From positions 10,478,001 through 10,542,000 of the forward strand of contig OZ024759.1 in assembly GCA_964016885.1 (NCBI GenBank): 64,000 nucleotides of DNA. Direction: 5' to 3'. The notes beneath the pieces are model-generated. The model was given only the letters and a program-made list of their open reading frames with translations. It made no database searches and had not been told where the DNA came from. Position 1 is the stretch's first letter. Each line of letters starts with the position of its first letter. Positions 2,780 through 56,075 of the stretch are shown one piece after another. Source of the stretch: Eledone cirrhosa. Lineage: Eukaryota. Position numbers and translations under genes: made by a program.

Positions 2780-3752
2780 CATGACTTTCGGAAACATTTT
2801 TTCACGCTCAGAGTTGCTGAAGCATGGAACAAACTACCTGCATCAGTTAATAGCTGTCGAGACTCTGCATCCTTTAAAACCTCCATGGAACAAACTACCT
2901 GCATCAGTTAATAGCTGTCGAGACTCTGCATCCTTTAAAACCTCCATGGAACAAACTACCTGCATCAGTTCTTAGCTGTCGAGACACTGCATCCTTTAAA
3001 ACCTCCATGGAACAAATTACCTGCATCAGTTAATAGCTGTCGAGACTCTGCATCCTTTAAAACCTCCATGGAACAAACTACCTGCATCAGTTGTTAGCTG
3101 TCGAGACACTGCATCCTTTAAAACCTCCATGGAACAAACTACCTGCATCAGTTGTTAGCTGTCGAGACACTGCATCCTTTAAAATTTCCATGAAACAAAC
3201 TACCTGCATCAGTTGTTAGCTGTCGAGACACTGCATCCTTTAAAACCTCCATGGAACAAACTACCTGCATCAGTTCTTAGCTGCCGAGACACTACATCCT
3301 TTAAAACCTCCATGGAACAAACTACCTGCATCAGTTGTTAGCTGTCGAGACACTGCATCCTTTAAAATTTCCATGAAACAAACTACCTGCATCAGTTGTT
3401 AGCTGTCGAGACACTGCATCCTTTAAAATTTCCATGAAACAAACTACCTGCATCAGTTCTTAGCTGCCGAGACACTACATCCTTTAAAACCTCCATGGAA
3501 CAAACTACCTGCATCAGTTGTTAGCTGTCAAGACACTGCATCCTTTTAAAACCTCCATGCTTCCCGAGATCCGCCAACACTACACCTAATGTTCCCCCTC
3601 CATACACACACACACATGTATATCATGACTCGTACACTATTCACTTCCCTGACATTTGTATATTATTCTATGTACTATACATGCACCTTTGATGAGTTGT
3701 AGTGCACCTGAGCACTGTACACAATAATTTCATTATTATTATTATTATTATT
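2780..3752 (+). mobile_element. 3' end of a CR1/L2-like LINE with an internal 58-bp tandem expansion (about 2823-3559) and (ATT)n tail
   Basis: HDFRKHFFTLRVAEAWNKLPASV is the typical CR1-group ORF2 C-terminus; same family as 62770-63440; tail also seen inverted at about 38930-39035. Confidence 0.85.
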
Positions 3753-6344: not shown

Positions 6345-7070
6345 AACAGGGTAGGTTACTATAGGGCAGGTTACCATAGGGCAGGTTACCACAGGGTAGG
6401 GTACCATAGAGTAGGTTACCATAGGGTAGGGTACCATAGGGTATGTTGCTACAGGGTAGGTTACCGTAGAGTAGGTTACTATAGGGCAGGGTACCATAGG
6501 GTAGGTTACTGTAGGGTAGGTTACCATAGGTTAGGTTAACATAGGGTAGGTTACCATAGGGTAGGTTACCATAGAGTAGATTAACATAGGGTAGGTTACT
6601 ATAGAGTAGGTTACCGTAGGGTAGATTACTGTAGGGTAGGTTACCATAGGGTAGGTTACCATAGAGTAGGTTAACATAGGGTAGGTTACTATAGAGTAGG
6701 TTACCATAGGGTAGGTTACTATAGAGTAGGTTACCATAGAGTAGGTTAACATAGGGTATGTTACCATAGGTTAGGTTACCGTAGGGTAGGTTACTATAGA
6801 GTAGCTTACCATAGGGTAGGTTAACATAGGGTAGGTTACCATAGGTTAGGTTACCGTAGGGTAGGTTACTATAGAGTAGCTTACCATAGGGTAGGTTAAC
6901 ATAGGGTAGGTTAACATAGGGTAGGTTACCATAGGTTAGGTTACTATAGAGTAGGTTGCCGTAGGGTAGGTTACTATAGAGTAGGTTGCCGTATGGTAGG
7001 TTACCATAGGTTAGGTTACTATAGAGTAGGTTGCCGTATGGTAGGTTACCATAGGTTTGTTAAGGTTAGG
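6345..7070. repeat. 15-bp minisatellite (AGGGTAGGTTACCAT)n in the last ZRANB1 intron
   Basis: Directly visible; explains the 5-aa repeat ORFs. Confidence 0.95.
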
Positions 7071-13449: not shown

Positions 13450-13909
13450 AAGAATGTAATAAATATAATACAAGACATTTAGCAGGACTAAACCAGCCAT
13501 TTGATCTATGGTACCCCCGCAGATCACTGACCACTCCTGGAGAAAAACAAGAGGACTTTTAAGATTTTTTTTACTTTGACTGTCTGTCCATATATGTGCT
13601 GTATCCTTGATAAGTTTAGAATACTGGCGCTTCAGTTCGGATCTAGCTGTCGAAACAACCGGAGCTCAACCGTCAGGGTCCTGAATTTTTCATATATATA
13701 TATTTAAAAAAAGGAAAAGAATGACTTCATTTCAGTTCTAAACAATTTGATTTAATTTTATAATAGTAGATATCTACCAAATCATATAAAATTAAATCAA
13801 ATTGTTCAGAACTACAAGTGAAGTCATTCTTTTTCTTTTTTTTAAATATACCTAACTGTACCAAGGATTTCACACATTTTCCAATGTATATATGTATATA
13901 TATTTAAAT

Positions 13910-16699: not shown

Positions 16700-17299
16700 A
16701 AATGAATTGTCTTCAAATCCTTGATATGAGGGAGAAAATTAACGGTGTTCTCTCACAGAGTTTAGTCCCTCATATGAAGATCAAGCAGTCAAAACATGGC
16801 GTGTTTTGACTGCTTTATCTTCATATGCAACCCCACCAAGTTTACTTGGCGAGGAGGGTGATTTTGGACACCCTGCAGGACAAAAAACAAAACCTGACAA
16901 AGGGTGGAAGAACTCATAAGAGTCAGCGGCCATCCGAAAGTGTAAATATGTTTATACACATGTACCGCGTGGTTAAACCACTGGGAGTGAAGGACCCCTA
17001 GCCTTTGTCAGGGCATTCTTCTAGGAGAAGGAAACTGGGATAACTCCGATATAAAACCTGTATATATATACATCTACAGATGTAATACAGACAGTGGCAG
17101 TGAAGTGAAAGTATTTTATAGAAATAGCAGAGCCAACGTCACTCACACCTGTACTGGAGATCACACCATGAAGGGAGCCAGGGTGGCTGACACTGACACC
17201 TTAAATGACACACCAGTGCTGCTGGTGAAACTCACTAACATGTGTAAAATTGCCTACCTGAGAGACTTAGCCATATGCATGACACTAACCAAAACGCAC

Positions 17300-17810
17300 C
17301 TGACAAGCAGTATAGCAGATGCGTAAATACATATAACAAAGTATACTGTATTTCGTTCTGACAGGAAGGAGAAAACTCGTGATGGGTTTGCTCTGTATAT
17401 CCGTAAAGATGTCACACCAATTGTTCTGTTGACACATTCAAACTGATAGTAGATATGAAGCAGCTGAAAATGGTAATGTGTGTCACATATCGGCCACCCG
17501 ACGCCCCCAGTCGTGAGGGTAAGTTTGAGGATAGCCTCAAGGATGGAAGAAGTCCTTGACAGAGTCGACCAGGGTCTCAACATTCTTCTGCTGTGAGACT
17601 TAACCTACCAATGGTCAAATGGCCTGAGGGCCACCTCCTCCCTGGAATGTCATCACTCGAACAGAGACAGATGGAGTCCATACTGGCCCTAACACACAGG
17701 CTTTTCATGGAACAAGCAGTACTCCTCCCAACAAAAGGCGAGAATGCCATGGAACTCTGGTTTACAGATAACGCAGTGCTCATCCGCAATGTAAAGGTAA
17801 CACTAACCAT
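17300..17810 (+). mobile_element. CR1/L2-like LINE endonuclease-region remnant
   Basis: DGFALYIRKD, YRPPDAP and D(L/F)NLP motifs of an APE endonuclease. Confidence 0.65.
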
Positions 17811-17864
17811 TTTCTTGGATTATAACTTTGAAAAAAGGTTTTTTTCAAAATGAGTATGTTAACT

Positions 17865-19615
17865 ATGTATGTGTGTGTATATATAGGTATTAACTCTGTG
17901 TGTGTATATATAATAACCCTGTGTGTGTATATATAGGTATTAACTCTGTGTGTGTATATATAGGTATTAACTCTGTATGTATGTATATATAACAACCTTA
18001 TAGGTGTATATATATATGTATCAACTCTGTGTGTGTATATATATATATATATAACTGTTTCTACTTTAGGCACAAGGCCAGCAATTACCCAGTGCATTAC
18101 TGGTACTTTATTTTATCGACCCCGTAAGGATGAAAGGCAAAGTCAACCTCGGCGGGATTTGAACTCAGATCGTAAAGGGACGTAACTATGCTGGAAAGCA
18201 TGGCGTCCGACCCTCTACCGATACTGCCAAGCCAATATATAACAACCTTATATATGAATTAACTCTGTATGTATATATATATAACAACCTTAATATATGT
18301 ATCAACTCTGTATGTGTATATATATTCAACAACCTTATAGGTATCAACTCAGTATGAGTGTATATATAACAACTTTATAGGTGTTAACTCTGTATGTGTG
18401 TATATATATATATATAACAAACTTATAGGTATTAACTCAGTATGTGTATATAATAACCTTATAGGTGTATATATAGGTATCAACTCAGTATGTGTGTATA
18501 TATAATAACCTTATAGGTGTATATATAGGTATCAACTCTGTATGTGTGTATATATAATAACCTTATAGGTGTATATATAGGTATTAACTCTGTATGTGTA
18601 TATATAACAACCTTATAGGTATCAACTCTGTATGTGTGTATATATAATAACCTTATAGGTGTATATATAGGTATCAACTCTGGATGTGTGTATATATAAT
18701 AACCCTATGTGTATACATATAGGTATTAACTCTGTGTGTATATATAATAACCTTATAGGTGTATATATAGGTATTAACTCAGTATGTGTGTATATATAAT
18801 AACCTTATAGGTGTATATATAGGTATCAACTCTGTATGTGTGTATATATAATAACCTTATAGGTGTATATATAGGTATTAACTCAGTATGTGTATATATA
18901 ACAACCTTATAGGTATCAACTCTGTATGTGTGTATATATAATAACCTTATAGGTGTATATATAGGTATCAACTCTGTGTGTGTATATATAATAACCTTAT
19001 AGGTGTATATATAGGTATCAACTCTGTATGTGTGTATATATAATAACCTTATAGGTGTATATATAGGTATCAACTCTGTATGTATATATAATAACCTTAT
19101 AGGTGTATATATAGGTATCAACTCAGTATGTGTGTATATATAATAACCTTATAGGTGTATATATAGGTATCAACTCTGTATGTATATATAATAACCTTAT
19201 AGGTGTATATATAGGTATCAACTCTGTATGTGTGTATATATAATAACCTTATAGGTGTATATATAGGTATCAACTCTGTGTGTGTATATATAATAACCTT
19301 ATAGGTGTATATATAGGTATCAACTCTGTATGTGTGTATATATAATAACCTTATAGGTGTATATATAGGTATCAACTCTGTATGTGTGTATATAATAACC
19401 TTATAGGTGTATATATAGGTATCAACTCTGTATGTGTATATATATAATAACCTTATAGGTGTATATATAGGTATCAACTCAGTATGTGTGTATATAATAA
19501 CCATATAGGTGTATATATAGGTATCAACTCTGTATGTGTATATAATAACCTTATAGGTGTATATATAGGTATCAACTCTGTATGTGTATATAATAACCTT
19601 ATAGGTGTTAACTCT
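17865..19615. repeat. About 48-52-bp AT-rich satellite
   Basis: Unit AACCTTATAGGTGTATATATAGGTATCAACTCTGTATGTGTGTATATATAAT; about 1.5 inverted units recur at 29200-29287. Confidence 0.93.
18056..18233 (-). mobile_element. tRNA-derived SINE family A inserted in the satellite
   Basis: Near-identical to 13258-13449. Confidence 0.9.
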
Positions 19616-20864
19616 GTTTATATATAGATGTTAACTATCAAAAAATAAATAACATTTTACATATTAGATTTACAGCTTCGCGTGGCGATGCACGCAGCTG
19701 TTCGGACTTGGTCGCCTACTTGTGTATGGCGTGACCATGTGTCAGAAGATGGAATCGCTGCGAGGGCACGGGGCCTAGTTGGCAGCCGGGACTATTTGCA
19801 GGCTTGCTACATGCTGGACAGCGCGAGGAGACCGTTTTATCCAATTTACTCTAAATTTTATTAGAGTTATCTCCATTCATTTAGAGTTACTTCCCCTGTA
19901 TCGAACTCTTCTCTTTTTTTATTTGCTTTTTGGTACTTTGAAAAAATTCATTTTGGATATTGTTTTCATGTATGTAATGTTATCTTTGCTGTATATTATC
20001 GAAGAAACTAAACCTTCTCTCTATACACATACATTTCATTAGATACACACTTTATGTCAATAAACCTCACATACATTTTGGATATTGTGTTTATGTGAAG
20101 AGGCTTTTTTATGTGGCTTTCTGGCACATCTTAATATTAACCAGAATCTTTTGAGATCTGTCATCTTTGATCATAGTAAAGATTATACCCGTCTAGTTTT
20201 GAACTAAATTTTTTTTTTTAGATATCATCATCGTAATCAAAGATTAACTGTTGGTCAGTATTAACTAGATCGATATCATTTTAACATACGTAGCATAGAA
20301 CCATTTAGATTCTTCTTAGGAAACTTCATTTACTTTCTTTGTTCGTTTTTAACACTTCATTTACATTCTTAGTTTAGTTACCTCCCTCGATGTAGGAAAG
20401 GTTTTCTTGTTGTCCTATTTAATTCTATATATAATAAAAGACAAAATGTAAAAGACTTTCACTTCCTTTTACCGATGTCCAGCCTTCAAGGTCATATGCT
20501 GTGTAGTTTGCCGTAACAAGTGGGAATGGCGAAGTTTCTGTTAATAAAAAGAGGTTACATATTATATACAAATAGTGTTCAGTTTATTTTGGCAAAAATG
20601 AATAAATAAATCAAGTAGAGGTTTACCTTTTAACTAAGTACTTGTCCAGCAGTTGCCTCAAAAGGTAGATGGCATCCGTAGTACTTTTACCTGACACAAA
20701 TCCAAACTATAGAGGCATGTACTGTTTTCTTTGCTCTATACACATACATTTTATTAGATACACACTTTATGTCAACAACTCTCACACTTTGCATCTTATG
20801 TTCATGTGGCTTTCTGGCACATCTTCACCCACTCAACATGCTTTCTTTGAAATTAAAAAATAAT

Positions 20865-21040
20865 TGTTTATACTTTTGACACAAGGCCAGCAATTACCCA
20901 GCACATTACTGGTACTTTATTTTACCGACCCCGTAAGGATGAAAGGCAAAGTTAACCTCGGCGGGATTTGAACTCAGACCATAAAGGGCAGTAACTCTAT
21001 GCTGCAAAGCATGGCGTCCGACCCTCTACCGATACTGCCA
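20865..21040 (-). mobile_element. SINE family A inserted in the left arm only
   Basis: TSD AAAAAATAAT at 20855-20864 and 21041-21050; absent from the right arm. Confidence 0.92.
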
Positions 21041-23252
21041 AAAAAATAATACACATACAAATAGTGTTACCCCTTCTAAGAAACTAAACTAAACCATCTC
21101 AACGCTATATACATACTTTCTAACTCAAATTTCTCTCTGTAAACCTCACTCTGTAGATCTTTCTTTAGAGACATACATATAAAACTATATACTCTCAACT
21201 AAGAAAAATATATAAACCTTCTTCTCTATACCTTTCCTTTTTTCTTCTAATAAACATCTATACCTTTCCTTTTTTCTTCTAATAAACCTCTATACACAGC
21301 TACATTTTATTATCTTCTCTATTTCTTTCACACGTGTCCTCTTGTATGTAGAGAGAAACCTTTGTGAGATTCGAACTCACCATTGTAAAGTCCAACAACT
21401 TTACATAAATACTTTGCGCATTGATGTCCAATTTTTTCGGCGCATGCGTACTTTAGTAAAATTAAATGGCCGCATGAAGAACTTCATGTTTTACAACGTG
21501 AATTAAAAAAACGTTAAAAACTTGGATTTTACTCATTTTACGGAGGTAAAGTAAAGCTTTATTTTATGTTGACCAGTTTTGAAACATTTTCTGTTTATTT
21601 CCCTCCATAATGTCAGAATTATTTAAACATTAGTTTTGTTTAGCGACATCTTACATTCTAATATAATACAGCACCCCCTTCATACATATTTCTTGCTCAT
21701 ACGAAATAGTGTATTTTATTAATTATTATTTAAGCTGGTAAATAATATATTTCTATTTCCCTTCATGATATCCTCATATTTTGTAATCAGAGGTTAACTG
21801 TTGATCAGTGTTAACTAGATCGATATCGCTTTAACTTTTAACTTACAACCATTTATATTCTTAGTTTCTTACGCTAGAAACTTCATTTACATTTTTAGTT
21901 TCTTTTTTTCAACACTTCATCTACATTCTTAGTTTCCTTCCAACAATATTATTTAGACGATAGTTTTGTTGAGGCTACTGCCACATTTCTCTGTCATATG
22001 AATTAGAATTTAGCTTATTTTCTTTCTTATTTAAATAATATATTTCTAGTTCCCTTCACGATATCCTCGTGTTTTGTTGTAAATTCATTTTCGAGGACTT
22101 GCTCCTGTCACACATGATGTTGGTTGCTATATTCTGGTTATTAATATTAACCAGAATTTTTTTAGATCTGTCGTCTTTGACGGGATGAATGTTACACCCG
22201 TCTTGTTTTGGCCATAAAACTTAGGTTTTGTACCCATTTTTTAAAATAGATACCATGATCGTAATATAAGATTAACTGTTGATCAGTGTTAACTAGATCG
22301 ATATCACTTTAACCTACGTAACATAGAACCATTTACATTCTTAGTTTCTTCTTACGAAACTTCATTTACTTTCTTTGTTCCTTTTCAACACTTTATTTAC
22401 ATTCTTTAGAAACTTCATTCTTAGTTTCTTTTTCCATTTACATGCTTAATTTTAGACACTTCATATACATTTTTAGTTTCTTACTTTAGAAACTTCATCT
22501 ACATTCTTAGTTGTTTTTTTAGATATCCTCATCGTAAACAAATATTAACCAGATCGATATCGCTTTAACTTTTAATCTACGTAACAAATAACCATTTACA
22601 TTCTTCTTTAGAAACTTCAACTACATTCTTAGTTACTCCCTCGATGTAGGAAAAAGTTTTCTTGTTTCATCTATTTAAATGTATAAAAGACAAAATTGGA
22701 TGAATTTTATAAAGTTTAACATTCTTTTTATTGATAACGTATGTAAATGACTTTCATTTCTTTTACAGATGTCCAGCCTTCAAGTTCCTCTGCTGTGTTG
22801 TTTGCCGTAACAAGCGGGAATGGTGTAGTTTCTTTTAATAAAGAAAGTTTACATATTATATACGAATTGTATTGTTTATTTTGACAAAAATGAATAAAGA
22901 AAGTTTACATCTTATATACGAATTGTATTGTTTATTTTGACAAAAATGAATAAAGAAAGTTTACATCTTATATACGAATTGTGTTCAGTTTATTTTGACA
23001 AAAATGAATAAAGAAATGAAGAGTCTACAAGAAACTGAGTAAGCCGTCATATAAAGAACGTAAGTGTATTGAAGTTTCTAAATAAAGAAACTAAGAGTAA
23101 AATAAAGTTTCCTGAAAGAAACTGAGAAAGATGAAGTTTCTAAATAAAGAAACTAAAAATGATAAAGTTTCTAAATAAAGAAACTAAAAATGTTTTTGAA
23201 ATTGTCGAAAGAAAATTCTATGAAACGGGACCCCTTTTTTTTTTTTTTTATT

Positions 23253-23634
23253 CAAGGGAGGTAACTCTAATATTTTGAAGGAATTACCTCCCTTGCAAAA
23301 TCACCTTCGTCACCGTCGTTACCACCGTCGGCACCTTCGTAACCGTCGTCACCATTACCGCCGCCACCTGGTGGCGGAGGAAAAGATACCGACGACGACG
23401 AAGGTGCACCGTCGTCTTCGTCGATATCTTTACCGCCGCCACCTGGTGGCGGAGGTGAAGACACCGACGAAGACGACGGTGCACCTTCGTCGTCGTCGGT
23501 ATCTTACCTCCGCCACCAGGTGGCGGCGGTAATGGTGACGACGGTTACGAAGGTGCCGACGGTGGTAACGACGGTGACGAAGGTGATTTTGCAAGGGAGG
23601 TAATTCTTTCAAAATATTAGAGTTACCTCCCTTG
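23253..23634. other. GC-rich nested-palindrome core of the giant inverted repeat
   Basis: Three CCGCCACCWGGTGGCGG copies, two GGTGCACC copies and two flanking CAAGGGAGGTAA..TTACCTCCCTTG stem-loops. Confidence 0.92.
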
Positions 23635-25644
23635 AATTAAAAAAAAATTAAAAAAAGGGGGTCCCATTTCATAGAATTTTCTTTCGACAATTTCAAAAAC
23701 ATTTTTAGTTTCTTTATTTAGAAACTTTATCATTTTTAGTTTCTTTATTTAGAAACTTCATCTTTCTCAGTTTCTTTCAGGAAACTTTATCTAACTCTTA
23801 GTTTCTTTATTTAGAAACTTCAATACTCTTACGTTCTTTATAGCACGGCTTACTCAGTTTCTTGTAGACTCTTGATTTCTTTATTCATTTTTTGTCAAAA
23901 TAAACTGAACACAATTCGTATATAAGATGTAAACTTTCTTTATTCATTTTTGTCAAAATAAACAATACAATTCGTATATAAGATGTAAACTTTCTTTATT
24001 CATTTTTGTCAAAATAAACAATACAATTCGTATATAATATGTAAACTTTCTTTATTAAAAGAAACTACACCATTCCCGCTTGTTACGGCAAACAACACAG
24101 CAGAGGAACTTGAAGGCTGGACATCTGTAAAAGAAATGAAAGTCATTTACATACGTTATCAATAAAAAGAATGTTAAACTTTATAAAATTCATCCAATTT
24201 TGTCTTTTATACATTTAAATAGATGAAACAAGAAAACTTTTTCCTACATCGAGGGAGTAACTAAGAATGTAGTTGAAGTTTCTAAAGAAGAATGTAAATG
24301 GTTATTTGTTACGTAGATTAAAAGTTAAAGCGATATCGATCTGGTTAATATTTGTTTACGATGAGGATATCTAAAAAAACAACTAAGAATGTAGGTGAAG
24401 TTTCTAAAGTAAGAAACTAAAAATGTATATGAAGTGTCTAAAATTAAGCATGTAAATGGAAAAAGAAACTAAGAATGAAGTTTCTAAAGAATGTAAATAA
24501 AGTGTTGAAAAGGAACAAAGAAAGTAAATGAAGTTTCGTAAGAAGAAACTAAGAATGTAAATGGTTCTATGTTACGTAGGTTAAAGTGATATCGATCTAG
24601 TTAACACTGATCAACAGTTAATCTTATATTACGATCATGGTATCTATTTAAAAAAATGGGTACAAAACCTAAGTTTTATGGCCAAAACAAGACGGGTGTA
24701 ACATTCATCCCGTCAAAGACGACAGATCTCAAAAGATTCTGGTTAATATTAATAACCAGAATATAGCAACCAACATCATGTGTGACAGGAGCAAGTCCTC
24801 GAAAACGAATTTACAACAAAACACGAGGATATCGTGAAGGGAACTAGAAATATATTATTTAAATAAGAAAGAAAATAAGCTAAATTCTAATTCATATGAC
24901 AGAGAAATGTGGCAGTAGCCTCAACAAAACTATCGTCTAAATAATATTGTTGGAAGGAAACTAAGAATGTAGATGAAGTGTTGAAAAAAAGAAACTAAAA
25001 ATGTAAATGAAGTTTCTAGCGAAAGAAACTAAGAATATAAATGGTTGTAGGTTAAAAGTTAAAGCGATATCGATCTAATTAACACTGATCAACAGTTAAC
25101 CTCTGATTACAAAATACGAGGATATCATGAAGGGAAATAGAAATATATTATTTACCAGCTTAAATAATAATTAATAAAATACACTATTTCGTATGAGCAA
25201 GAAATATGTATGAGGGGGGTGTTGTATTATATTAGAATGTAAGATGTCGCTAAACAAAACTAATGTTTAAATAATTCAGACATTATGGAGGGAAATAAAC
25301 AGAAAATGTTTCAAAACTGGTCAACATAAAATAAAGCTTTACTTTACCTCCGTAAAATGAGTAAAATCCAAGTTTTTAACGTTTTTTTAATTCACGTTGT
25401 AAAACATGAAGTTCTTCATGCGGCCATTTAATTTTACTAAAGTACGCATGCGCCGAAAAAATTGGACATCAATGCGCAAAGTATTTATGTAAAGTTGTCG
25501 GACTTTACAATGGTGAGTTCGAATCTCACAAAGGTTTCTCTCTACATACAAGAGGACACGTGTGAAAGAAATAGAGAAGATAATAAAATGTAGCTGTATA
25601 TAGAGGTTTATTAGAAGAAAAAAGGAAAGGTATAGAGAAGAAGG

Positions 25645-25964
25645 TGTAGCGACGTGGTTAGTCGGTCTGGCCACTGCTTCTGATCGGATCTGAGAATAGC
25701 CCTTAAAAGGACTGTTATCGCATACGGTACGGATGAACAGACAAAAGAATATGTTGAAAGGACGAGCAAGGCGAGAGATGTGAGTGACAAGTGTGGCAGA
25801 GAAGAGGAACAACGATACGCAAGCTGACTCTGGCAAAGGTCGACTGGTGAAAGTAGGCGTTTTAATTTGGTGGCTTAAGGGTTGTTTGTTTCACGATGAG
25901 GTAGCTAGCTAAGCCGATAGATAGAGTTGTTTATTTCACAGATGTTATTTCCGGTGGCTGTACA
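25645..25964. mobile_element. Solo LTR (320 bp) in the right arm
   Basis: TGT...ACA termini and 4-bp TSD AAGG (25641-25644, 25965-25968); the left arm has the empty site at about 21215-21230. Confidence 0.8.
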
Positions 25965-26111
25965 AAGGTTTATATATTTTTCTTATGTGTCTCTAAAGAA
26001 ATATCTACAGAATGAGGTTTATAGAGAGAAATTTGAGTTAGAAAGTATGTATATAGTGTCGAGATGGTTTAGTTTAGTTCCTTATAAGGGGTAACACTAT
26101 TTGTATGCGTA

Positions 26112-27900
26112 TCATCATCATCATCATCATCATCATCATTTTACGTCCGCTTTTCCCTGCTTGCAAGTGTGGGACGGTTCTTATTCAGCACAGCTTCTCT
26201 CCACTTGTCACGGTCCTTCGTCATCTCCACCGTGAGCTTCAGCGATCTGAGGTCTGTTCTCACCACCTCCGCCCATGATTTTCGTGGTCTACATCTACCA
26301 CGTCTTCCTTCAAACGGCATTTCCTGGCACTTCTTCACCCATTGGTCACCCTCCATGCGCATCACATGTCCATACCACCTCAGTCTCCTCTCTCGCACAC
26401 TACATTCTATCCCTCTCAGACACAGTTTCTCTCTCAACAATTCATGCTGGGTCGTTCACGCACATTGACATTGCACATCCAACGGAGCATACTTGCTTCA
26501 TTTCTCTCCAGCCGTCGCATATCATCTACAGCTGCTGCACATGTCTCACTACCATGCAGTATCGCGCTCCTCACACAGGCATCATATAACCGGCCTTTCG
26601 TACGCAGGGAGAAACCCTTCTTCGTCAGCAGAGGAAGCAACTTCCTAAACTTCTTCCAACCCGTCCTTATTCTAGATACTATGGTCTCCCATGCTAATCT
26701 GATCTCCTAGGTACCGGAAGCTATCCACCACTTCTATAGCATCCACCTGCATTTGAAAAATGTGTCTATCAATGCGACTTCTACTGTCTAATTTCCCTGT
26801 ACAACTACTGCATACATATTTCTCCCTACCTGTTAGTTTGCCTGCTATCCCACTACATCTCTTGTGTACCCAGGATCTGCATTTTGTGCATTTTATAGAA
26901 TTTATGCTAGTTCCTTTTCTGCATATCGAACATGGCCATTTCCCTGACGGAATCAGAGTTTTGTCCTCTTTTCTACTCATCAACACTTTTGTCTTAGCTA
27001 TGTTCACTCTCAGTCCTCTTGCTTCCAGCTGCTGTTTCCATAGCCAGAATTTATTCTCTAGCTCCTCTACTGATTCTGCTATAAGAACCAGATCGTCAGC
27101 ATAGAGAAGTTCCCATGGACAGCCAGTCTTAAACTCATCTGTTATGGCTTGGAGGACTATAATGAACAAGAGCGGGCTGAGGACCGAACCTTGATGTGCT
27201 CCTACTTGTATCTGGAATTCCTCACTAAACTCCATTCCTACCCTGACTTTACTGACAGTACTTCTGTACAAAGTATGCACAAGTCATTCCTCAACACCTA
27301 GTTTCCTTAGGGACCACCAGATGACAGATCGGGGTACCCTATCAAAGGCCTTCTCTAGGTCAACAAGGCTAAGTATAGTGGATTATTTTTCTCTAAGAAC
27401 CTCTCTTGTAATTGTCTCACCAAGAAGAGGGCATCTGTTGTACTCTTCCCAGGCACAAAACCAAACTGCATCTCATCTAGTTTGACCCTTTCTCTAATTA
27501 GTTGTGCTAATATCCGTTCTGCCACTTTCATAACCTGATCCATCAGTTTTATACCCCTATAATTGCTCCTCACCAGAGCATCCCCTTTACCTTTGTAGCA
27601 ATTTATGAGAATACTCCTGCTCCAGTCTTTGGGTATGACACCACCATATATAGCCTGATTGATGATGCGTGAAACCAGTTTAGTGCCTATGTCTCCTGAT
27701 GCCTTCAGCATCTCAGCAACTATCACCGATGGTCCAGCAGCCTTACCATTTTTCATTTCCTTAATCACCTCTTGGACCCTATATTCGTCAATCTCAATAG
27801 CTGGTCCCTCTGTCTTACTGAGGGTAACTTCTCTCTCTCCCATTCGTTCTCCACATTCATCAGTCTCTCATAATGACATTTCCAGGCCTCCTTTTTCTGC
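26112..27900 (-). mobile_element. RTE LINE, 5'-truncated and frameshifted, inserted in the right arm
   Basis: QFGFVPGKSTTDA, GAHQGSVLSPLLF, LLYADDL, RLRWYGHVMR; (ATG)n tail at 26112-26138. Confidence 0.93.
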
Positions 27901-29289
27901 TTATTCGTGTATATTTTTTTTAATTTCAAAGAAAGCATGTTGAGTGGGTGAAGATGTGCCAGAAAGCCACATGAACATAAGATCCAAAGTGTGAGAGTTG
28001 TTGACATAAAGTGTGTATCTAATAAAATGTATGTGTATAGATCAAAGAAAACATTACATGCCTCTATAGTTTGGATTTGTGTCAGGTAAAAGTACTACGG
28101 ATGCCATCTACCTTTTGAGGCAACTGCTGGACAAGTACTTAGTTAAAAGGTAAACCTCTACTTGATTTATTTATTCATTTTTGTCAAAATAAACTGAACA
28201 CTATTTGTATATAATATGTAACCTTTTTTTATTAACAGAAACTTCGCCATTCCTACTTGTTACGGCAAACAACACAGCATATGACCTTGAAGGCTGGACA
28301 TCGGTAAAAGGAAATGAAAGTCTTTTACATTTTGTCTTTTATTATATATAGATTTAAATAGAGGAAACAAGAAAACCTTTCCTACATCGAGGGAGGTAAC
28401 TAAACTAAGAATGTAAATGAAGTTTAATGTAAATCAAGTTTCTAAAGAATGAAACTAAAAATGGAAATGAAGTGTTAAAAACGAACAAAGAAAGTAAATG
28501 AAGTTTCCTAAGAATCTAAATGGTTCTATGCTACGTATGTTAAAATGATATCGATCTAATTAATACTGACCAACAGTTAAACTTTGATTACGATGATGAT
28601 ATCTAAAAAAAAATTTCGTTCAAAACTAGACGGGTATAATATTGACTATGATCAAAGATGACTGATCCAAAAGATTCTGGTTAATATTAAGATGTGCCAG
28701 AAAGCCACATAAAAAAGCCTCTTCACATAAACACAATATCCAAAATGTATGTGAGGTTTATTGACATAAAGTGTGTATCTAATGAAATGTATGTGTATAG
28801 AGAGAAGGTTTAGTTTCTTCGATAATATACAGCAAAGATAACATTACATACATGAAAACAATATCCAAAATGAATTTTTTCAAAGTACCGAATAGCAAAT
28901 AAAAAAAGAGAAGAGTTCCATACAGAGGAAGTAACTCTAAATAAAGGGCGATCACTCTAATCAAATTTTGAGCAAATAGGAGTAAGACGGATTCCTCGCG
29001 CGGTCCAGCATGTAGCAAGCCTGCAAATAGTCCCGGCTGCCAACTAGGCCCCGTGCCATCGCAGCGATTCCATCTTCTGACACATGGCCACGCCATACAC
29101 AAGTAGGCGACCAAGTCCGAACAGCTGCGTGCATCGCCACGCGAAGCTGTAAATCTAATATGTAAAATGTTATTTTTTGATAGTTAACATCTATATATAA
29201 ACAGAGTTAACACCTATAAGGTTATTATATATACACACATACTGAGTTGATACCTATATATACACCTATAAGGTTATTATATATACAGA

Positions 29290-31340
29290 CAGACTTATCC
29301 AGCTCTCAATACCAAAGTTCGGTGCTAGTCCCTCCAGGATTTTCCATATGTATATCTCTGCGTATCTCTCCCGTCTTCGTTCCAAGGAGTAAAGGTTCAG
29401 TTCGTTTAGCATCTCCCAGTAGCTTATATCCTTCATCGTCGCAATCCTCTTGGTGTAGCTTCGCTGGATTGCTTCAAGCTCCATGGTTAGTTTGACACTA
29501 TGGGGTGACCACAGCTGGAAGCAATAGTCCAGGCGGCTTAGGACAAATGTTCTCCATTATATCATCAAGGTCCAGCCAGTGAGTCGTCTGCACATTGTCG
29601 CCACCTTCATGATGTGTGAGGAAAAAGATGCATCGTCACTCATGTCTACACCCAGGTCTCGTAGCGATTTCGACACGGGAATTTAGGTCCCTCCTGGTCC
29701 AGTGTAGCTGTGTTGTACTGTATTTGTGTTTGCAGGTTTGTATTGTAGGGCTTGCATGTTGTTGTCTTCCGCCCATTTGTATATAGCATCCAGATCTTGT
29801 TGTAAAAGGGCAGCGTCAGCAGAGTTTTTGATTGCCTGTGCTACCTTAGTGTCATCAGCATAGCTAGTGAGGAATCTTGTATGTACTGCAGAGGGCATGT
29901 CTGAGAGAGCTACCAAAAACAGTAGTGGTCCCAAGACTGTGCCTTGGGCACCCCACTTGTTATTGATGTTTCCTTTGAGAGGGCCCCGTTTGCTGCAACT
30001 GTATAGCGTCTGTCCTTTAAGAAGTCATGCAGCCACTCACCTACTTTTACAGTTATGCCGAGTCCGTGTAGTTTGTGACATAACATTCCGTGGTCGACCT
30101 TGTCAAAGGCTTTCTCAAAGTCTAGATATATCACGTCCACATGTGAGCTGTCTAGCAGTTGTTTCAGTACCCAGTCGTATTGATGTAGCAGCTGTGTAAG
30201 GCAGCTTCTTCCTGGGCGAAAGCCATGCTGCGTACTGGTCAGGTGGTCATTTTCTTTGAGGAAAGTGATCAGTTTCTTTCTGATGATTCGCTCCATGACC
30301 ATACTGATATGTGACGTCAGTGAGACTGGCCTATACTTTTTGGCCTCCGCTCCGCTACCTCCTTTATGGATAGGGCATATTGTGCCTTCTTTCAGCTGCC
30401 TAGGTAGTCTACCGCTAGCCAAGGAGCTTCTGAAGAGCGTCGTCAGTGGAGTTGCTAAGGCTCGCTTTCATATTTTTAAGAGGACTGCTGGGAATCCATC
30501 AGGTCCAGCAGCTGAGTCTGTTCTAATTTTCTCTATGGCGTAAACCACATCCTCCTCCATTATGTCTATGTGGTTGTGAATTGACAGTATCGGTAGAGGG
30601 TTGGACGCCATGCTTTCTAGCATAGTTACGTCCCTTTACAGTCTGAGTTCAAATCCCGTCGAGGTTAACTTTGTCTTTCATCCTCACGGGGTCGATAAAA
30701 TAAAGTACCACTAATGTACTGAGTAATTGCTGGCCTTGTGCCTAAAGTAGAAACAGTTATGTCTATGTGGTTGATGGTCGCCATTTCTTCATGGAGTGTT
30801 GTGGCATCAAAGAATTCCTCTGGATTTCGTATTTGCATGTGCCTCAGTGGACATGTGAACACACTTTTGTACTGTTCGTTCAGTATTTTACTTATCTCTT
30901 GGGATTCTCGGTCAATGAACCGTCTTTATGGAAGAGTGGCCCAATCTTGCAGTCTACCTAGAAAGTCTGTTTTGCAAATTTAAAGAAGGCCTTAGGGTCT
31001 GTTTTAATATTTTCTATGGCTCTGCTTTCTTTCTTTGCCCTCTCATTTTCATGGGAAACTTTGAGTGCAATCTCGATGTCAAGAAGTGTACGTTTCAAAT
31101 AGGATTCCTTCTTGTTTTTTTTTTGTGCATTCAACTGGTTTGAGAGCTTAGTTCTTCGTCTGATAAGGGTTTTTCTGTCTCTGGGAATAAGATTTTTGTG
31201 TCTGTTGGCCTTTTTCTCCGGGACAAACTTTTGGCATAGAGTTTGTATCGTTGTCATGAAGTGTTGAAAATGTGTGTTGGTGTCTTGTGTGGCGATGTTG
31301 TCACTCCATATTTGCTTCCAGATTTCTCTCGAGTTTTTTC
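29290..31340 (-). mobile_element. CR1/L2-like LINE ORF2 remnant
   Basis: YRPVSLTS, QHGFRPGRSCLTQL, YLDFEKAFDKV, SYADDTK and LYSLERRRER motifs; frameshifted. Confidence 0.9.
30577..30756 (+). mobile_element. SINE family A nested in the CR1-like LINE
   Basis: 17-bp TSD TTATGTCTATGTGGTTG at 30560-30576 and 30757-30773. Confidence 0.92.
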
Positions 31341-31359
31341 CGGTTAGCCTTGTAGAAGT

Positions 31360-31419
<60 letters not shown>

Positions 31420-31456
31420 TATATATATACATGTGTGTGTGTGTATGTATATATAT

Positions 31457-34330: not shown

Positions 34331-36156
34331 TTGCCCCTTGTTTTGCTCTAAATTTGATTAGAGATATTTCCCTTTATTTAGATAACTTCCCCTAATGTTT
34401 TCTAGGACATCTAAGAAAATAAACCTTCTCTCTGTGAAGAGGTATTTTATGTTTTATTTACTGTGGCTCTCTGGCACATATTCACCCACTCGACACATAC
34501 AAATAATGTTACCAATCCTAAATAAACTAACCTAAGCCATCTCGACACTATATACATTTCTACTGCATTTCTGTTATAATGTATTAGCAAGAATACTCAA
34601 GGTTTGTTTGTGCCTTCAAGCGTATTTTGCAAAGTATAAAACCGGAAATCAACTCTGTCTTCACATCCGTTTGTAAGTGACCACGGATATTCATCATTTC
34701 ATATAAATGAATGGCAATGTGGTATATATGCAATAATATACTGTGTATCTTAAGAAGAAACTATAAAAGCTGAGAAAGAAGTAAAAGAAAAAATGCAGTA
34801 AATTTACTGGCTGCAGTGCCAGAACTTTGTTGTCTGCTGAGAACTATGGAAAAAAGAAAGAAACCACAAAAATGAGGAAGTTGCTTCAAATTCTGTTTTT
34901 TTTTTTAATGAAGAAAGGAAAAAAAAACAGATTTCTAGCAAAGTTAGATATTTTGGGTGCGGATATAATCGATTACATCGAACTTAATATTTGGCTAGTA
35001 TTTATGATTTCGACATCGGTCCCGACAGGATTTGAACATATAACTTAACAGTGCATATCATATATCATATCATACCGAATATGATAACCATTTTTATACC
35101 ATATGTCATTTCTGTTCCCCTTTTTATTGTATATTATAATTTACTGCCATATTAATGAAGAAAATAGAGAAATCCTATCATATTATGTAAAGTTTTCATC
35201 CCCATTCTATAGTTATTATGAACTTAATCATTTCTCTCTACACATTCTCAATAAATCTCATTCTGTGGATCAGCCATCTTTCTTTATTGAATACATCCTT
35301 TACCTTGTCAACAATACGTTTTACTATCTTCTCTTTTTAGAGACTACTAAGAAAAATATATAAACCTTCTTCTCTATACTTTTCATATTTTCTTTTAAGA
35401 AACAAAACGAAACCTCTATATACAGCTACATTTTTATTATCTTCTCTATTTCTTTCACGATGCATGGCACCTTCATTTCTCGCACACGTGTCCTCTTGTA
35501 CGCTGAGTGATTTGCTCAAGAACACAACGCAAAGCCCGGTCTGAGAATCGAACTCCCGATTGTAAAGCCCGACGACTTCACATAAATACTTTGCACATGC
35601 GTACCTTGTGTAACTCTGTTTAATAAAAATAAAATGGCAGCCAGAAGAACTTCATGTTTTCCAACATGAATAATTAAAAAAAAACGTTAAAAACTTTGAC
35701 TTTACTAATTTTACGGAGGTAAAGTAAAGCCTTATTTTATGTTGATCAGTTTTATTAAAATATTTTCTATTTATTTCCCTAATGTCAGAAATAATTATTT
35801 TAACGTTAGTTTTGTTTAGCTTCTGCCACACCTTACCTTCTAATGTAATACACCTCTCCCACATATTGGTCATATGAAATGGCATATTTCTTTTCAAGTT
35901 GGTAAATTTCTAGTTCCCCTCATGATATCCTCGTGTTTTGTTGTAAATTCGTTTTGGAGGACTTGCTCTTTGTCGACATATTCCTTTCACACTAGATGTG
36001 CCGTTGGGGTGTCAACCTGTGCCACTGCAGTCTGTTGTCACCACTGTTTTCTATTCTCCGTCACATGTATGGATTCTTCGTTCTGATAGAGTTTCTTTTC
36101 CATGGCAGAATCCACTTCTTCTTCTTCAAGTCTTCCACATGATGTTGGTTGCTATT

Positions 36157-36492
36157 CATTTCATTTCATTTTACGTCCGCTTTTCCCTGCTTGCAAGGGT
36201 GGGACAGGAACTGATTCTGGCTTGATTTCTACAGCTGGATGCCCTTCCTAACACCAACCTCATTTACAGTGAGTGCTAGGTGCTTTTTTTGTCGTGGCAC
36301 CTACACGTCCACTTTGCAGTGGAATGATAGGGACCCCAGTCCCTATTATCTCATTTCTACAGCTGAGTAAACTGGAGCAATGTAGAATAAAGTGTCTTGC
36401 TCAAGGAAACAACACATCACCCGGTCTGAGAATTGAACTCACAACCTTTCGATTGCAAGGCCAATGCTCTAACCACTAAGCCATGTGTCTCC
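36157..36492 (-). mobile_element. SINE family B, full length
   Basis: tRNA-like head with A/B boxes plus RTE tail. Confidence 0.9.
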
Positions 36493-37861
36493 ATATTCTG
36501 GGATAATTGCTGGCCTTGTGCCAAAAGTAGAAACAATTAATATTAACCAGAATCTTTTTGAGATCTGTCGTCTTTTATTCAGTGTGAATATTACACTTGA
36601 ACGAATTATTTTCTAAACATCATCGTAATCAAAGGTTAACTGTTGATCAGTGTCAACTACATAGATATCGCTTTAACTTTTAACCTACGTAACAGAGCCA
36701 TTTACATTCGTAGTTTGGCAGCTTCATTTCTCTCACACTTGTCTTCTTGTACATAGAAGTAAACCTTTTGTTGTCAACAGTGAGTATAGCTCCACACCAC
36801 TGATATTGTCCAACTCATTTTTGGAGCAACGTCAAATAATGTCTTACTCAAAACTGTGGTCAATGTCGCATAGTATCTCCCACGCTTGCATGGGTCGTCT
36901 TGTTTATATATGTGTGTGCTGTTAGGGAGTGCACTTAGAGTTGTCCATTCTTTCGTGAATGTACAAACAGCACAAAGGATTATTTAGTAGGATCCTCTAC
37001 GGCCAGCTAAACCATAGTCAGTTCCTGCTTAAAGTGCGAAAGGATCAGTTTAATGACATACTTCTCGTAGGATCCTGTACAGTCAGCTAAACCCTGGTCA
37101 ATACAAGCTTAGAGGGCGAATGGATCCTATACTTCACATAATATCTATGTCCAACGAAGCAGTTTTATAGTGTATACGTCCCATGGCAAACTAAACGCTG
37201 GTCAGAGGGCGAAATAAGCCCTTCATTAATGTAGCTGGACTGTCGTCTATACGGAGTTAAGTGATTGTCCATTGAAAAAAAAATATATATATAAACGAAA
37301 TGAATTGAGGTAATTCGTTCGGATTAGATTTTCAAGACGATGTTTTTAATGAAATTAGTTTGATAATTTATAAAGATCGAATCCCTCATCGTTACAATAC
37401 CACTGATGCGCGAATAATTTTCTTGTAAAAATGTTTACTCAGAAACCGATTTACCGCCCGTTGTTTCATTTATATTTTTTTTTAACAAAAAAATGTGAAA
37501 CGTACCCATAAGGATGAGTATTCTACTCAATAGAATTGCGACCTTCGAGGTGACCTGCGAGCTGCGCCTCGGACTTCCAGTCTATATGATTGACGCTCGT
37601 TTAGTGGTGGCCTGCGATTGCTAAGTGTAGATAATTCACAGTTTTTGCTTTAAAAAATTGTGAATTATCCTCCCCTTTGATATTACCTCACTTGATTTTA
37701 AGAAACTTCATCCTTAGTTTCTTTTTTCGTCATTTACATTCTTTAGACACTTGATATATGTCCTTGGTTTCTTTCTTTGGAAACTTCATCTCCATTCTTA
37801 GTTACTTTCTTTAGACACTTCATCTACATTGTTCCTAGAAACTAAAAATGTTAGTTTTTTT

Positions 37862-38060
37862 CGTTAGAAACTTCATCTACATTTTTAGTTTCTTTCTTTA
37901 GAAACTTCATCTACATTTTTAGTTTCTTTCTTTAGAAACTTCATCTACATTTTTAGTTTCTTTCTTTAGAAACTTCATCTACATTTTTAGTTTCTTTCTT
38001 TAGAAACTTCATCTACATTTTTAGTTTCTTTTTTCATCTACATCCTTAGTTTTTTTCTTT
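37862..38060. repeat. 34-bp tandem subrepeat of the foldback arm
   Basis: TTTAGAAACTTCATCTACATTTTTAGTTTCTTTC repeated; degenerate versions occur throughout the arms of both copies. Confidence 0.85.
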
Positions 38061-38570
38061 AGACACTTCACTTGCGTTCTTTTTAGTACGTCTTACTAAG
38101 TTTCTTATAGACTCTTAATTTCTTTATTCACTTTTGTCAAAATAAACCAATATGTAAACGTTCTTTATTAACAGAAACTTCGCCATTCCCACTTGTTGCG
38201 GCAACACAGCATATGACCTCGAAGACTGGACATCTCTAAAAATAAATGGAAGTCATTTACATACGTTATCAATAAAAAGTATATTTAACTTTAATAAAAT
38301 TCTTGAAACCTTTTCCTACATCAAGGGAGGTAACTAAAGAATGTATATTAAATTTCTGAATGTAGATGAAGTGTCAGAAACTAAGAATGTAAATGGTTCT
38401 ATGTTACGTAGGCTGAAAGTTAAAGCGATATCGATCTAGTTAACACTTAATCTTCGATTACGATCATGATATCTAAAAAAAAATTCGTTTATGGCCAAAA
38501 CGAGACGGGTGTAATATTTACCCTGACCAAAGACGATAGATCTCAAAAGATTCTGGTTAATATTAATAAT

Positions 38571-38680
38571 TGTTTCTACTTTTGGCACAAGGCCAGCAAT
38601 TACCCAGTGTATTACTGGTACTTTATTTTATCGACCCCGTAAGGATGAAAGGCAAAGTTAACCTCGACGGGATTTGAACT
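38571..38680 (-). mobile_element. SINE family A, 5'-truncated
   Basis: Matches the 3' portion of 13258-13449. Confidence 0.88.
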
Positions 38681-40799
38681 AATAGCAGTCAACATCATGT
38701 GTGACAAGAGCAAGTCATCTAAAACGAATTTACAACAAAACACGAGAATATGATGAAGGGAACTACAAATATACCAACTTAATTAATAATTTTAATAAAA
38801 TCCGTTATTTCGTATGACCAAGAAATGTAGTTTTATATAGAGGTTTCTTCGAAGGAAAGGCATTCTAAAAAGAGAAAATAGTAAAACGTATTTTGGGGTC
38901 TCGAGAATATCTGCTAGTGTTGACAAGGTTTACAATAATAATAATAATAATGAATGAAATTATTGTGTACGGTGCTCAGGTGCACTACAACTCATCAAAG
39001 GTGCATGTATAGTACATAGAATAATGTACAAATGTCAATGTATTCAATAAAGAAAGATCTACAGAATGAGGTTTAAAGAGAGAAATTTGAGTTATATTTA
39101 TTAGAAAGTATGTATATGGCTTACTTGAGTTTCATATTTGTATGTTTTTTAGTTTAAAAGAAAGAATGTCGAGTAGGTGAAGATGTGGCAGAAAGCTACA
39201 GTACCTCTTCACATGAACACAATATCCAAAATGTGAGAGTTATTGACATAAAGTATGTATCTAATAGTGTGTATAGAAAGAAGGTTTAGTTTCTTAGCTG
39301 GTCCTAGTATACAGCAAAGAAAACATTACATAGCTCTCTACACGGGGAAAACAATATCCAAAGTGATTTTCTTTCAAAGAATCGGGGAAAAAAAAAAAAA
39401 AGAGTTCCATTAAGGGGAAGTAATTCTAACAAAAGGGAAATAACTCTAATCAAATTTACAGCTAGAAGCATTGTGCGTGAGGTCAAACATATAGCCAGCC
39501 TGCAAATAGGCTGCCACCTAGGCCGCGTGCCACCTCAAAGATTCGATCATCAGACACATAGAATGGTCACGCCATACATAAGTAGGCGACGAAGTCCGAA
39601 CCACTACGCACATTGCCACGCGAAGCCGCAATACTACTCAGACAATTAGTCATACTTATAGGTAAAATGTTATTTATTTACAAAAATATATATATAAACG
39701 GAAAGAAAGCGAGATAACAGGCATCAAAATATATAGTGTTACCTCACTCACATTCCGTTTCTATATATAAATTATGTTAGAAACTACTAGTATTTAGTAC
39801 ATATATACCGAACAATTAATATTTAAGTAAATATACATGTTTCTGTAAATAAATTAAAAAAAGTATATATATAAAGTTTGTTCTAAATTTATCGCCGGGT
39901 TTCCTTGTTAAGTGTCTCAGAGTACAAGACTCTCTCTGGATAGGATTCTAGTCTATCGCAGGATTAACTCCCTAACTACTGAGTGTACTGGAACATGAAA
40001 TGTTGCCCTAAAACTACTTCTTTCGCCCTCTTATCTGCTATTGACTATGGTTTAGGAGAGCTTATAAGTTAACCACACCCTAAATCCGTTTCTTTCGCCC
40101 CCTAACCTGGCATTCAAATACTAATTTGAAGCAACATCAAGTTTTCGAGGTTTGGGGAGATAGCAAGATCAAGTTAGTACTTTTGGTTTTTTTAAATTAT
40201 AAATAAAGTGAAGTCAAGTAATTCGGAGTAAACATTTTTACTGTGTTTTAGTTAAATTCTAAAATAACGAAGAACTACTATGCTAAGGGCACCCTGCTGT
40301 AGAAACCAGCTACTGTTGGATGCCCTTCCTAACATCAACCCGTGTGGACTGTGTCCTTATTTTCATGGCACCAAACCAACCAATTTACAATGTGAACTGG
40401 TCACTTTAGTCGCATCACCAAAACGACCCCTTCACGGGTTGGGCTAAGTGATTTTGTTGTGTCACCATTATGCCCACTTTACAGTGTAGGCTGGGTGCTT
40501 TTTTTCGTATCTCCAACATGACCCCTTCACAGATTGGTCTGGATGAGAGGACTTAGTGCCCTTTTGTCATGAAACCGACATGGCCACCTTACAGGGTCCA
40601 CAGCAGCATTGTGGGAGAGTCTGTTCAGCTTTCCATACATGGGTTGGTTAAGAGAGCTGCATCAGATGTGGATGGGTGGAGAGATAGGTCTAAGGAAGGT
40701 ACTTAGCTGGTGAGGGGTGGAGTGATTAACGCGTGGGAGGAGTATGGAATGGGGGAGGGAGAAGTTTGGCATACGAGAGACCTCTAGATCTTGCTTCAT

Positions 40800-47388: not shown

Positions 47389-47529
47389 TATAATGAAACT
47401 CAAGGTATGATAGCAATAAATACCAGGGTGTAATGTTCATCAATGCAAACTCCAGAGGTGAACTAGCTATCTTGATTAAACCAGGAATTAAGATGAATCC
47501 TGAGAAAGAACAAAATAATGATAATAATG

Positions 47530-49863: not shown

Positions 49864-50198
49864 AACAACACATCACCCGGTCTGAGAATTGAACTCGAAA
49901 GGTTGTGAGTTCAATTCTCAGACCGGGTGATGTGTTGTTTCCTTGACCAAGACACTTTATTTCACATTGCTCCAGTTTACTCAGCTGTAGAAATGAGATG
50001 ATAGGGACTAGGGTCCCTATCATTCCACTGTAAAGTGGTCATGGAGGTGCCACATTAAAAAAGCACCCAGCACTCACTGTAAATGAGGTTGGTGTTAGGA
50101 AGGGCATCCAACTGTAGAAATCAAGCCAGAATCAGTTCCCGTCCCACCCTTGCAAGCAGGGAAAAGCGGACGTAAAATGAAATGATGATGATGATGAT
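49864..50198 (+). mobile_element. SINE family B with an inverted 5' duplication
   Basis: Body 49897-50198; 49864-49896 is the reverse complement of 49907-49939. Confidence 0.88.
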
Positions 50199-52679: not shown

Positions 52680-53049
52680 ACACACACACATACAACAAAA
52701 GGATGTTTATACACACACAGACATGTCAAAACACTTCTACAAATAACTGAACCTAAATCATACCTGTTGTTGTTGTTGCTGTTATATCAGACACCTGTAC
52801 AGGTGTGAACAACTTCCTACAACGTTGCATTTCATGGGAAGCTTTCTCAGCTGTTTTAAGGAGAGTGTGCTGTGGGGTGGAGGCGATGATACAGTGTGGC
52901 CTAATGGTTAAGGTGTTCACTTTACAATCATCAGTACCCAGGTTCAATACTACCCTCAGACATCTTAGATATTATTTACCATAAACGTCCAATGATTGTA
53001 AACTATTTCTTCACAAGATTCTATTTTCACAAATAGTATACACACACCT

Positions 53050-56000: not shown

Positions 56001-56075
56001 CTCATGTACACCAGGTCCAAACACAGATGAACCAAACTCCCACTGTCATCACCTCCATCTCTCCTACAATTCCCA
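53050..56075. repeat. 78-bp minisatellite (roughly 38 units)
   Basis: 26-aa periodicity in the ORF track (MYTRSKHRGTKLPLSSPPSHLPSPSL). Confidence 0.97.

Follow-up and report, generated by a model that had tools for sequence, protein, structure and literature searches.

A five-axis GC-rich palindrome at the centre of a 7.3-kb non-coding palindrome, a likely foldback-type transposon of octopods

The GC-rich nested palindrome described here is the centre of a 7.3-kb modular, non-coding palindrome, which is likely to be an octopod non-autonomous foldback-type DNA transposon; its core probably arose when a GC-rich 9-mer minisatellite folded back on itself and was copied more than once. The probability of this reading is estimated at about 0.6. 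The element lies in a 64-kb stretch of DNA, analyzed as a whole and called the window. It would represent, at the least, a giant octopod foldback family that has apparently not been described before. Such an element would record the passage from a minisatellite to a nested palindrome, as well as arms that are kept alike by patchy conversion, and its position within a probable inversion bears on the reshuffling of cephalopod genomes.

The core and the palindrome around it

The features of the element (copy 1), of its flanks and of a second copy are the following.

17222-17826, plus strand: 5' piece of a split LINE ORF2, residues 54-266 of the relative P0001; ends at the left edge of the element
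17870-19608: left outer domain, an array of a 52-bp (27+25) minisatellite interrupted by a SINE at 18045-18234
19587-23234: left arm, AT-rich and non-coding, with internally duplicated modules (77-87% alike) and sub-repeats of 31-34 bp and 56 bp
20860-21041, plus strand: SINE-like insertion, left arm only, with an A-rich 10-bp target duplication; high copy number
21225-21288: 32-bp tandem duplication, left arm only, at the outer edge of a 99.2% identical tract
23235-23249, plus strand: T tract, mirrored by an interrupted A tract at 23637-23657
23253-23295: left 12-bp stem-loop, two inverted copies of a AGGGAGGTAACT-type motif that recurs along the arms
23301-23368, minus strand: outer half-unit S0, 68 nt, a degenerate GGT/GAC 9-mer array and exact mirror of S5
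23361-23377, minus strand: axis A1, with an exact CTCF consensus match at 23361-23374, minus strand
23403-23410: axis B1, motif present
23436-23452, minus strand: axis A2, centre of the whole palindrome (23444), with an exact CTCF consensus match at 23436-23449, minus strand
23478-23485: axis B2, motif present
23510-23526, plus strand: axis A3, with an exact CTCF consensus match at 23513-23526, plus strand
23519-23586, plus strand: outer half-unit S5, 68 nt, mirror of S0
23592-23634: right 12-bp stem-loop, symmetry axis 23613
23653-29231: right arm, containing two insertions missing from the left arm
25645-25964: solo-LTR-like insertion, right arm only, with TGT...ACA ends and a 4-bp AAGG duplication
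26116-27915, minus strand: LINE insertion, right arm only, with a reverse transcriptase, a PHD finger and an ATG-repeat tail
29210-29293: right outer domain, 52-bp minisatellite in mirror orientation, stopping after less than two units
29299-31360, minus strand: next piece of the same LINE family, P0001 residues 305-934 over 31329-29299, the last ~100 residues missing; inverted relative to the 5' piece
34342-39626: second, decayed palindromic copy of the arm family (copy 2), ~69-92% identical to copy 1, with modules in mirrored order and no GC core

The core is organized around five symmetry axes, at 23369 (A1), 23406.5 (B1), 23444 (A2), 23481.5 (B2) and 23518 (A3), which are spaced by 37.5, 37.5, 37.5 and 36.5 bp and flanked by the axes of the two stem-loops at 23274 and 23613. 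All seven motifs listed in an earlier, sequence-only reading of this DNA are in place, the three 17-mers having T, T and A at their centres. The alternating unit of about 37 bp that it described is borne out far beyond chance. The best sub-axis score within the left half alone, to which the test was restricted so that the main axis was taken out, is 27, compared to maxima of 11 in 1000 base shuffles and 12 in 1000 triplet shuffles. The alternation stands, and the layout can be refined to six half-units, S0 to S5, of a 37-nt unit, the outer two of which open with a more diverged version of it. The first 8 nt of the unit are unchanged in all six. S0 and S5 (68 nt each) are identical mirror copies that extend 31 bases past the 37-nt unit and display a degenerate 9-mer array built from GGT and GAC triplets. 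Between S0 and the inner four half-units there are 8-11 differences. To judge from its letters, the raw material of the core is a GC-rich GGT/GAC 9-mer minisatellite.

The contrast in composition that was noticed earlier is also real: the core (23301-23586) has a GC content of 61%, compared to 28-29% in the inner arms, and contains 41 CpG dinucleotides where 26.5 are expected, the observed/expected CpG ratio of the whole window being 0.48. The region 23220-23670 has a predicted folding energy of -274.6 kcal/mol, as opposed to -66.1 +/- 5.0 kcal/mol for 100 shuffles (z = -42). A single hairpin and branched forms had both been proposed for the core. Only the former is favored by the predicted energies (linear hairpin, -250.4 kcal/mol), the three-finger (-231.4 kcal/mol) and T-shaped (-221.8 kcal/mol) forms being clearly less stable. 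Coding by the core was considered and ruled out, as its frames of 86 and 102 amino acids are mirror images and match no Pfam family. An Rfam search gave no match and a tRNA search found none.

Once the insertions are removed, a single continuous palindrome runs from 19587 to 29231 and is centred on 23444. It is 7.3 kb long, and its arms, each of ~3.6 kb, meet without a spacer, so that the core is its exact centre. The arms are non-coding (the longest stop-free frame has 96 amino acids). The motif that recurs along them also makes up both 12-bp stem-loops. With at most one mismatch, AGGGRGRTAACT has 13 matches, 1.2 being expected, and nine of the 13 lie within the two family copies, outside their SINEs. 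The 52-bp minisatellite closes both ends of the palindrome in mirror orientation, occupying ~1.5 kb on the left and under two units on the right. Other minisatellite arrays of the window are found at 47528-48825 (123-bp unit), 53049-56082 (78 bp), 56213-56752 (79 bp), 2823-3559 (61 bp) and 6348-7055 (15 bp); isolated, dispersed relatives of the 61-bp and 123-bp units occur at other places in the window. Isolated hairpins occur as well: a 120-bp AT-rich, MITE-like palindrome at 13715-13833 (83% self-complementary), and two more at 16771-16827 and 49864-49938, the latter at the head-to-head junction between two copies of a dispersed repeat.

Each arm carries insertions of its own. The one at 20860-21041 we take to be a SINE, and the LINE at 26116-27915 is presumably RTE-like. 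These two occupy mirror positions within ~10 bp of each other, at the same A-rich site. The closest relatives of the window's LINE reverse transcriptase are 72-75% identical to it; those of Argonauta hians are 62-65% and bird elements 37-39% identical, and on this basis the repeat-rich animal DNA of the window is taken to come from an octopod. The unduplicated form of 21225-21288 is present in contigs at a depth of 95-102.

Segment by segment, the arms are 92-99% alike. The differences are unevenly distributed: 14 of 1743 positions (10 of them transitions) differ in the inner tract, compared to 35 of 1264 in the outer one (p=3e-5), and the central 444 positions contain 15 differences (p=1.5e-4). 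The clean inner tract ends at the insertions. This patchy identity is read as the probable outcome of arm-to-arm conversion.

Other copies and the flanking LINE

Copy 2 lies 5 kb from copy 1 and has a different centre. It is self-inverted in eight arm segments that are 77-97% alike, and its arms meet in 34-bp sub-repeats that are the same as the direct repeats on both sides of the copy 1 core. Because such direct sub-repeats flank the core in copy 1, recombination between them may plausibly have removed the core from copy 2. At its centre (36987-37313) copy 2 holds an 80-bp two-copy repeat, which may be an older outer domain of the family; an inverted relative of this repeat (71-82%) is located at 39682-40055, just past the right end of the copy.

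Contigs from sequencing reads point to further copies. In three runs of sample S1, 64, 55 and 41% of 53 sampled words from 23150-23740 are present; none of the runs listed as matching is an RNA run. The depth data comprise the X1 and X3 contigs on 19640-23560, all from S1, which is perhaps the source of the assembly. Summed contig depths in the core bins are 397 and 149 (X1) and 428 and 134 (X3), compared to 6.0 and 8.0 for the locus-specific contig; such sums do not translate into copy number, and at a likeness of 85% the core bins may have gained depth from unrelated low-complexity DNA of the GGT/GAC kind. An S1 contig at a depth of 88 has a 2-base deletion at 23300 (X1 only), and an S1 variant contig with six substitutions links the arm, the T tract and the stem-loop. 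These data suggest that several loci in the genome carry the core. That the core might be unique, a possibility named in the sequence-only reading, is apparently contradicted by these contigs, all of which are from one sample. Variants of the arms are also found in RAD reads from two other samples. In the RAD runs X4 and X5 no reads fall on 23308-23560, which is uninformative because the core has no site for the enzyme implied by the read starts (SphI at 21442). The core is covered by contigs alone, and among the listed contig joints and loose ends the SINE takes up so many rows that joints at the core do not show.

The element is flanked by two pieces of LINE ORF2, which are complementary and inverted with respect to each other when compared to each of three full-length relatives (P0001, P0002 and P0003). 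The simplest reading is that an inversion of ~17830-31360, with deletions at its joints, took place and that it encloses the entire palindrome; the two pieces may instead be separate truncated copies. A candidate target duplication of 11 bp on the two sides of the split LINE was ruled out, position 29296 being a break inside ORF2 and not its end. A homologue search with the endonuclease piece of the LINE gave no matches. The right joint of the probable inversion coincides exactly with a run of 35 TA units (31360-31430). At the left edge of the element there is a short A/T hairpin (17827-17850), unique in the window, which is possibly a true terminus.

Neither true termini nor a target-site duplication of the element were found in the window. 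No target duplication is readable at the ends because both are rearrangement joints, abutting the LINE breaks.

Origin of the core and competing explanations

The relationships between the half-units bear on the way in which the core was assembled. Half-units that mirror each other across the centre show 0 (S0/S5), 2 (S1/S4) and 4 (S2/S3) differences, whereas the direct pairs, which would be closest if a 75-bp segment had been duplicated in tandem, show 5 and 5. At two diagnostic sites S1 groups with S4, and S2 with S3. Mirror, or fold-back, copying is favored over tandem duplication by these counts, in line with the repeated hairpin-primed copying proposed from the sequence alone. The likeness of mirror pairs is no proof of a fold-back origin, because later conversion between the arms would leave an identical signal. 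The pattern favors either copying from a strand folded back at an A hairpin that was already present or conversion between the two sides of the centre at a later time, two processes that a single copy cannot separate. The sub-axes are 11-30% diverged. With a calibration in which a distance of 0.09 corresponds to 25 million years (from part of PMC13282606), they would be ~20-40 million years old and the arms 1-4 million years old, both being rough values from short sequences.

The following sequence of events may be proposed. A strand end within a GGT/GAC array would have folded back at B and primed synthesis, yielding A-B-A, and another fold-back, at the existing A hairpin, would have yielded A-B-A-B-A. 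Since then, gene conversion from one arm to the other would have renewed the main axis, in tracts delimited by the insertions. A transposase encoded elsewhere would bind the motif repeated along the arms and move the element, the core being a passenger that recombination between the flanking direct sub-repeats of 31-34 bp could remove. Finally, the palindrome, as a fragile site, would have been involved in the inversion by which the flanking LINE was split.

The element fits the foldback type, having long arms, tandem sub-repeats, a variable non-coding middle and multiple copies. Its inverted arms of ~3.6 kb carry sub-repeats of 31-34, 56 and 52 bp in varying number, and the non-coding middle differs between copies, of which there are two in the window in addition to the variants in contigs and reads. 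The Pfam scan covered 57 frames, namely 53 of the 92 frames of at least 100 amino acids and four shorter ones, the 39 omitted frames overlapping tandem arrays. It returned matches to reverse transcriptase and PHD/C1 fingers, together with an OTU domain and a single match below threshold. None of the 57 frames matched a Rep/NS1, capsid, polymerase B, integrase, transposase or recombinase family, nor any other family typical of hairpin-telomere replicons or Polintons (protelomerase, ATPase). The OTU cysteine-protease domain (E 6e-9) belongs to a frame at 1428-1973, beside an array of 46 copies of a 33-bp unit. OTU domains occur in some mobile elements.

It is unlikely that the palindrome is a non-mobile, local inverted duplication of a repeat-rich segment, produced by template switching or breakage-fusion at a small pre-existing hairpin. 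The rearranged ends, the inversion that seems to surround the palindrome, the missing target duplication and the minisatellite ends, which are not seen on copy 2, would all agree with such an event, but copy 2 is likewise palindromic, with the same module order and 69-92% identity, and variant contigs bearing the core and the stem-loop occur at higher depth. That the structure arose as an assembly or read artefact, in particular a fold-back chimera, is hardly credible. None of the listed contigs covers the whole stretch and only 41-64% of the sampled words are present; yet a fold-back read artefact is effectively excluded because three insertions with target duplications are each confined to one arm. 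The arms moreover differ by transition-rich substitutions, the sub-units differ from one another at 4-11 positions and right-arm letters are present in contigs. The reservation of the sequence-only reading that the core could be a consensus artefact is answered by these one-sided insertions and arm substitutions. The same reading took the core for a candidate origin or resolution site and compared it to the dimer junctions of parvoviral termini and hairpin-telomere replicons. In a wider form of this proposal the core would be the frozen, integrated dimer junction of an element replicating through hairpins (parvovirus- or densovirus-like, a Helitron-type HUH element or a hairpin-telomere replicon), which is distinctly improbable. 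Rolling-hairpin copying of a short dumbbell would yield alternating 37-nt units, and the mirror pairs are indeed closer than the direct ones. GAC repeats serve as an NS1 site in densoviruses, and within the window (GAC)3 and (GTC)3 runs occur nowhere but in the core. An alternating, regular layout with a proposed HUH rolling-circle origin is also displayed by bacterial BIMEs, as described in part of PMC2817692. However, the comparison with parvoviral, Polinton and other hairpin termini found none of their enzymes in the 57 frames. Neither the A-B axis pair nor the core motifs and arm patterns have an exact match in viral contigs, the core and arm patterns have none in prokaryote genomes, and the core pattern was not found in phages. 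The linear hairpin exceeds the T-form in stability by 29 kcal/mol; 23200-23700 contains no GAGC or ACCA repeats and no match to the densovirus nick hexamer considered, but does contain one (GAC)3 and its mirror. Old, degraded sub-axes stand beside a fresh main axis, the core is missing from copy 2, and each arm consists of non-coding modular repeat, 3.6 kb in length, with host retroelements. Two chance resemblances were set aside: a metagenome match (L001, 3001-3043) is a lone 12-bp hairpin between bacterial-type genes, otherwise unlike the window, and a plasmid match of 66 bases (83%) in a haloarchaeal gene reflects convergent low-complexity Gly/Asp codons.

CTCF sites have been spread by transposons in mammals. 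The window contains three exact matches to the human CTCF consensus CCASYAGRKGGCRS (given in part of PMC6746451), all of them on the A axes, 75 bp apart and oriented reverse, reverse and forward. Each A axis has the exact consensus on one strand and a one-mismatch version on the other, and three of the four one-mismatch matches are the opposite strands of exact ones (in shuffles, one-mismatch matches number 0.36 on average and 3 at most). In cephalopods, CTCF, cohesin and CTCF-like motifs are reported at domain borders and loop anchors in parts of PMC9023564 and PMC13652810. The core might have a regulatory function, its three putative CTCF sites, near-bidirectional and clustered in CpG-rich DNA, being carried by the foldback as a mobile insulator. 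This idea is unlikely to be right. The position of all exact matches on the A axes, the invariance of the first 8 nt in six of six half-units and the cephalopod motifs agree with it, but the three sites are copies of one event and the motif is near-palindromic, so that mirroring a GGT-GGC run makes a CTCF match by accident; exact matches arise in 44 of 20,000 triplet-shuffled and 41 of 200,000 base-shuffled mirrors. The motif was also picked after the sequence was seen, the consensus is human, hairpin-driven repair likewise predicts invariance beside an axis, and copy 2 lacks the core. The CTCF matches may therefore be a by-product of mirroring. Combined with the mobility of the family, the idea would be that the middle of an octopus foldback consists of fold-back-amplified bidirectional CTCF sites in a CpG-rich island, forming a mobile insulator with the added capacity to break and invert chromosomes, which is similarly unlikely. 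If it were true, the family could both rearrange the genome of a cephalopod and give rise to new domain boundaries where the rearrangements occurred. Should CTCF bind the A axes, core-bearing and coreless copies would provide a natural experiment on transposon-placed boundaries in a spiralian, a class of boundary for which direct evidence is described as lacking in the relevant part of PMC10658181.

Comparison with known systems

The preferred reading, that of a foldback-type transposon, can be set against several known systems. Parvovirus and densovirus termini are imperfect GC-rich palindromes that can be drawn as a T or a Y with a single central base. The core can be drawn in the same way, its B1 and B2 hairpins being reverse complements. 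It differs in that the window contains no NS1/Rep or capsid family, the T-form is not favored (-221.8 versus -250.4 kcal/mol), the arms are kilobases of host-type modular repeat, and no GAGC or ACCA tetramer repeats, of the kind bound by Rep, were found in 23200-23700. With the BIME/REP mosaics and their RAYT proteins (PMC2817692, in part) the core shares short palindromes that are regularly spaced, alternate in orientation and are amplified as modules. BIMEs are bacterial and the linkers of their REPs are mutually unrelated, whereas the linkers here are mirror copies of one unit in an animal genome, and no RAYT/HUH transposase family is found in the scanned frames of the window. With CTCF sites, as represented in the portion of PMC6746451 drawn on, the core shares three exact consensus matches in a CpG-rich patch within a repeat. 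They are, however, sequence matches on palindrome axes, 75 bp apart and near-valid on both strands.

HINEs, the Helentron-associated elements of molluscs (PMC7492417, in part), are likewise non-autonomous DNA elements of molluscs with internal satellite-like repeats and small stem-loops. They are asymmetric, having a short subterminal repeat and a microsatellite on the left and a short subterminal repeat and a palindrome on the right. The present element, as judged by eye and with damaged ends, is symmetric throughout, a layout that departs from that of a HINE. Palindromic repeats of giant size are in themselves already known, because large cichlid palindromes have been kept as unassigned non-autonomous elements (PMC13652916, in part). 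No description of the present family or of its nested middle domain was found in the literature covered, a scope that left most subscription papers, Repbase, Dfam and the octopus repeat libraries outside. The terms palindrome, foldback and hairpin do not occur in the main text and one supplementary file of the Octopus vulgaris repeat annotation (PMC13282606), whose repeat library was outside the scope.

The closest counterparts are the foldback elements FB, Galileo and Tetris of Drosophila. Their layout, as outlined in excerpts of PMC4079207, consists of long arms, tandem repeats and a variable non-coding middle. The octopod element shares with them the long inverted arms with internal tandem repeats, the non-coding middle that varies between copies, the association with inversions and the lack of a transposase in the copy. 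The autonomous partner expected of a foldback would encode a Mutator- or P-type transposase. On the shared features the element is termed foldback-like, with no superfamily assigned to it. According to the same excerpts, Tetris makes a target duplication of 8-10 bp, whereas ends and duplication of the present element were not found in the window. The arms of Tetris reach up to 1,735 bp, compared to ~3.6 kb here, where no spacer separates them. The middle of the octopod element, unlike that of the foldbacks described in these excerpts, is itself a GC-rich nested palindrome with five axes.
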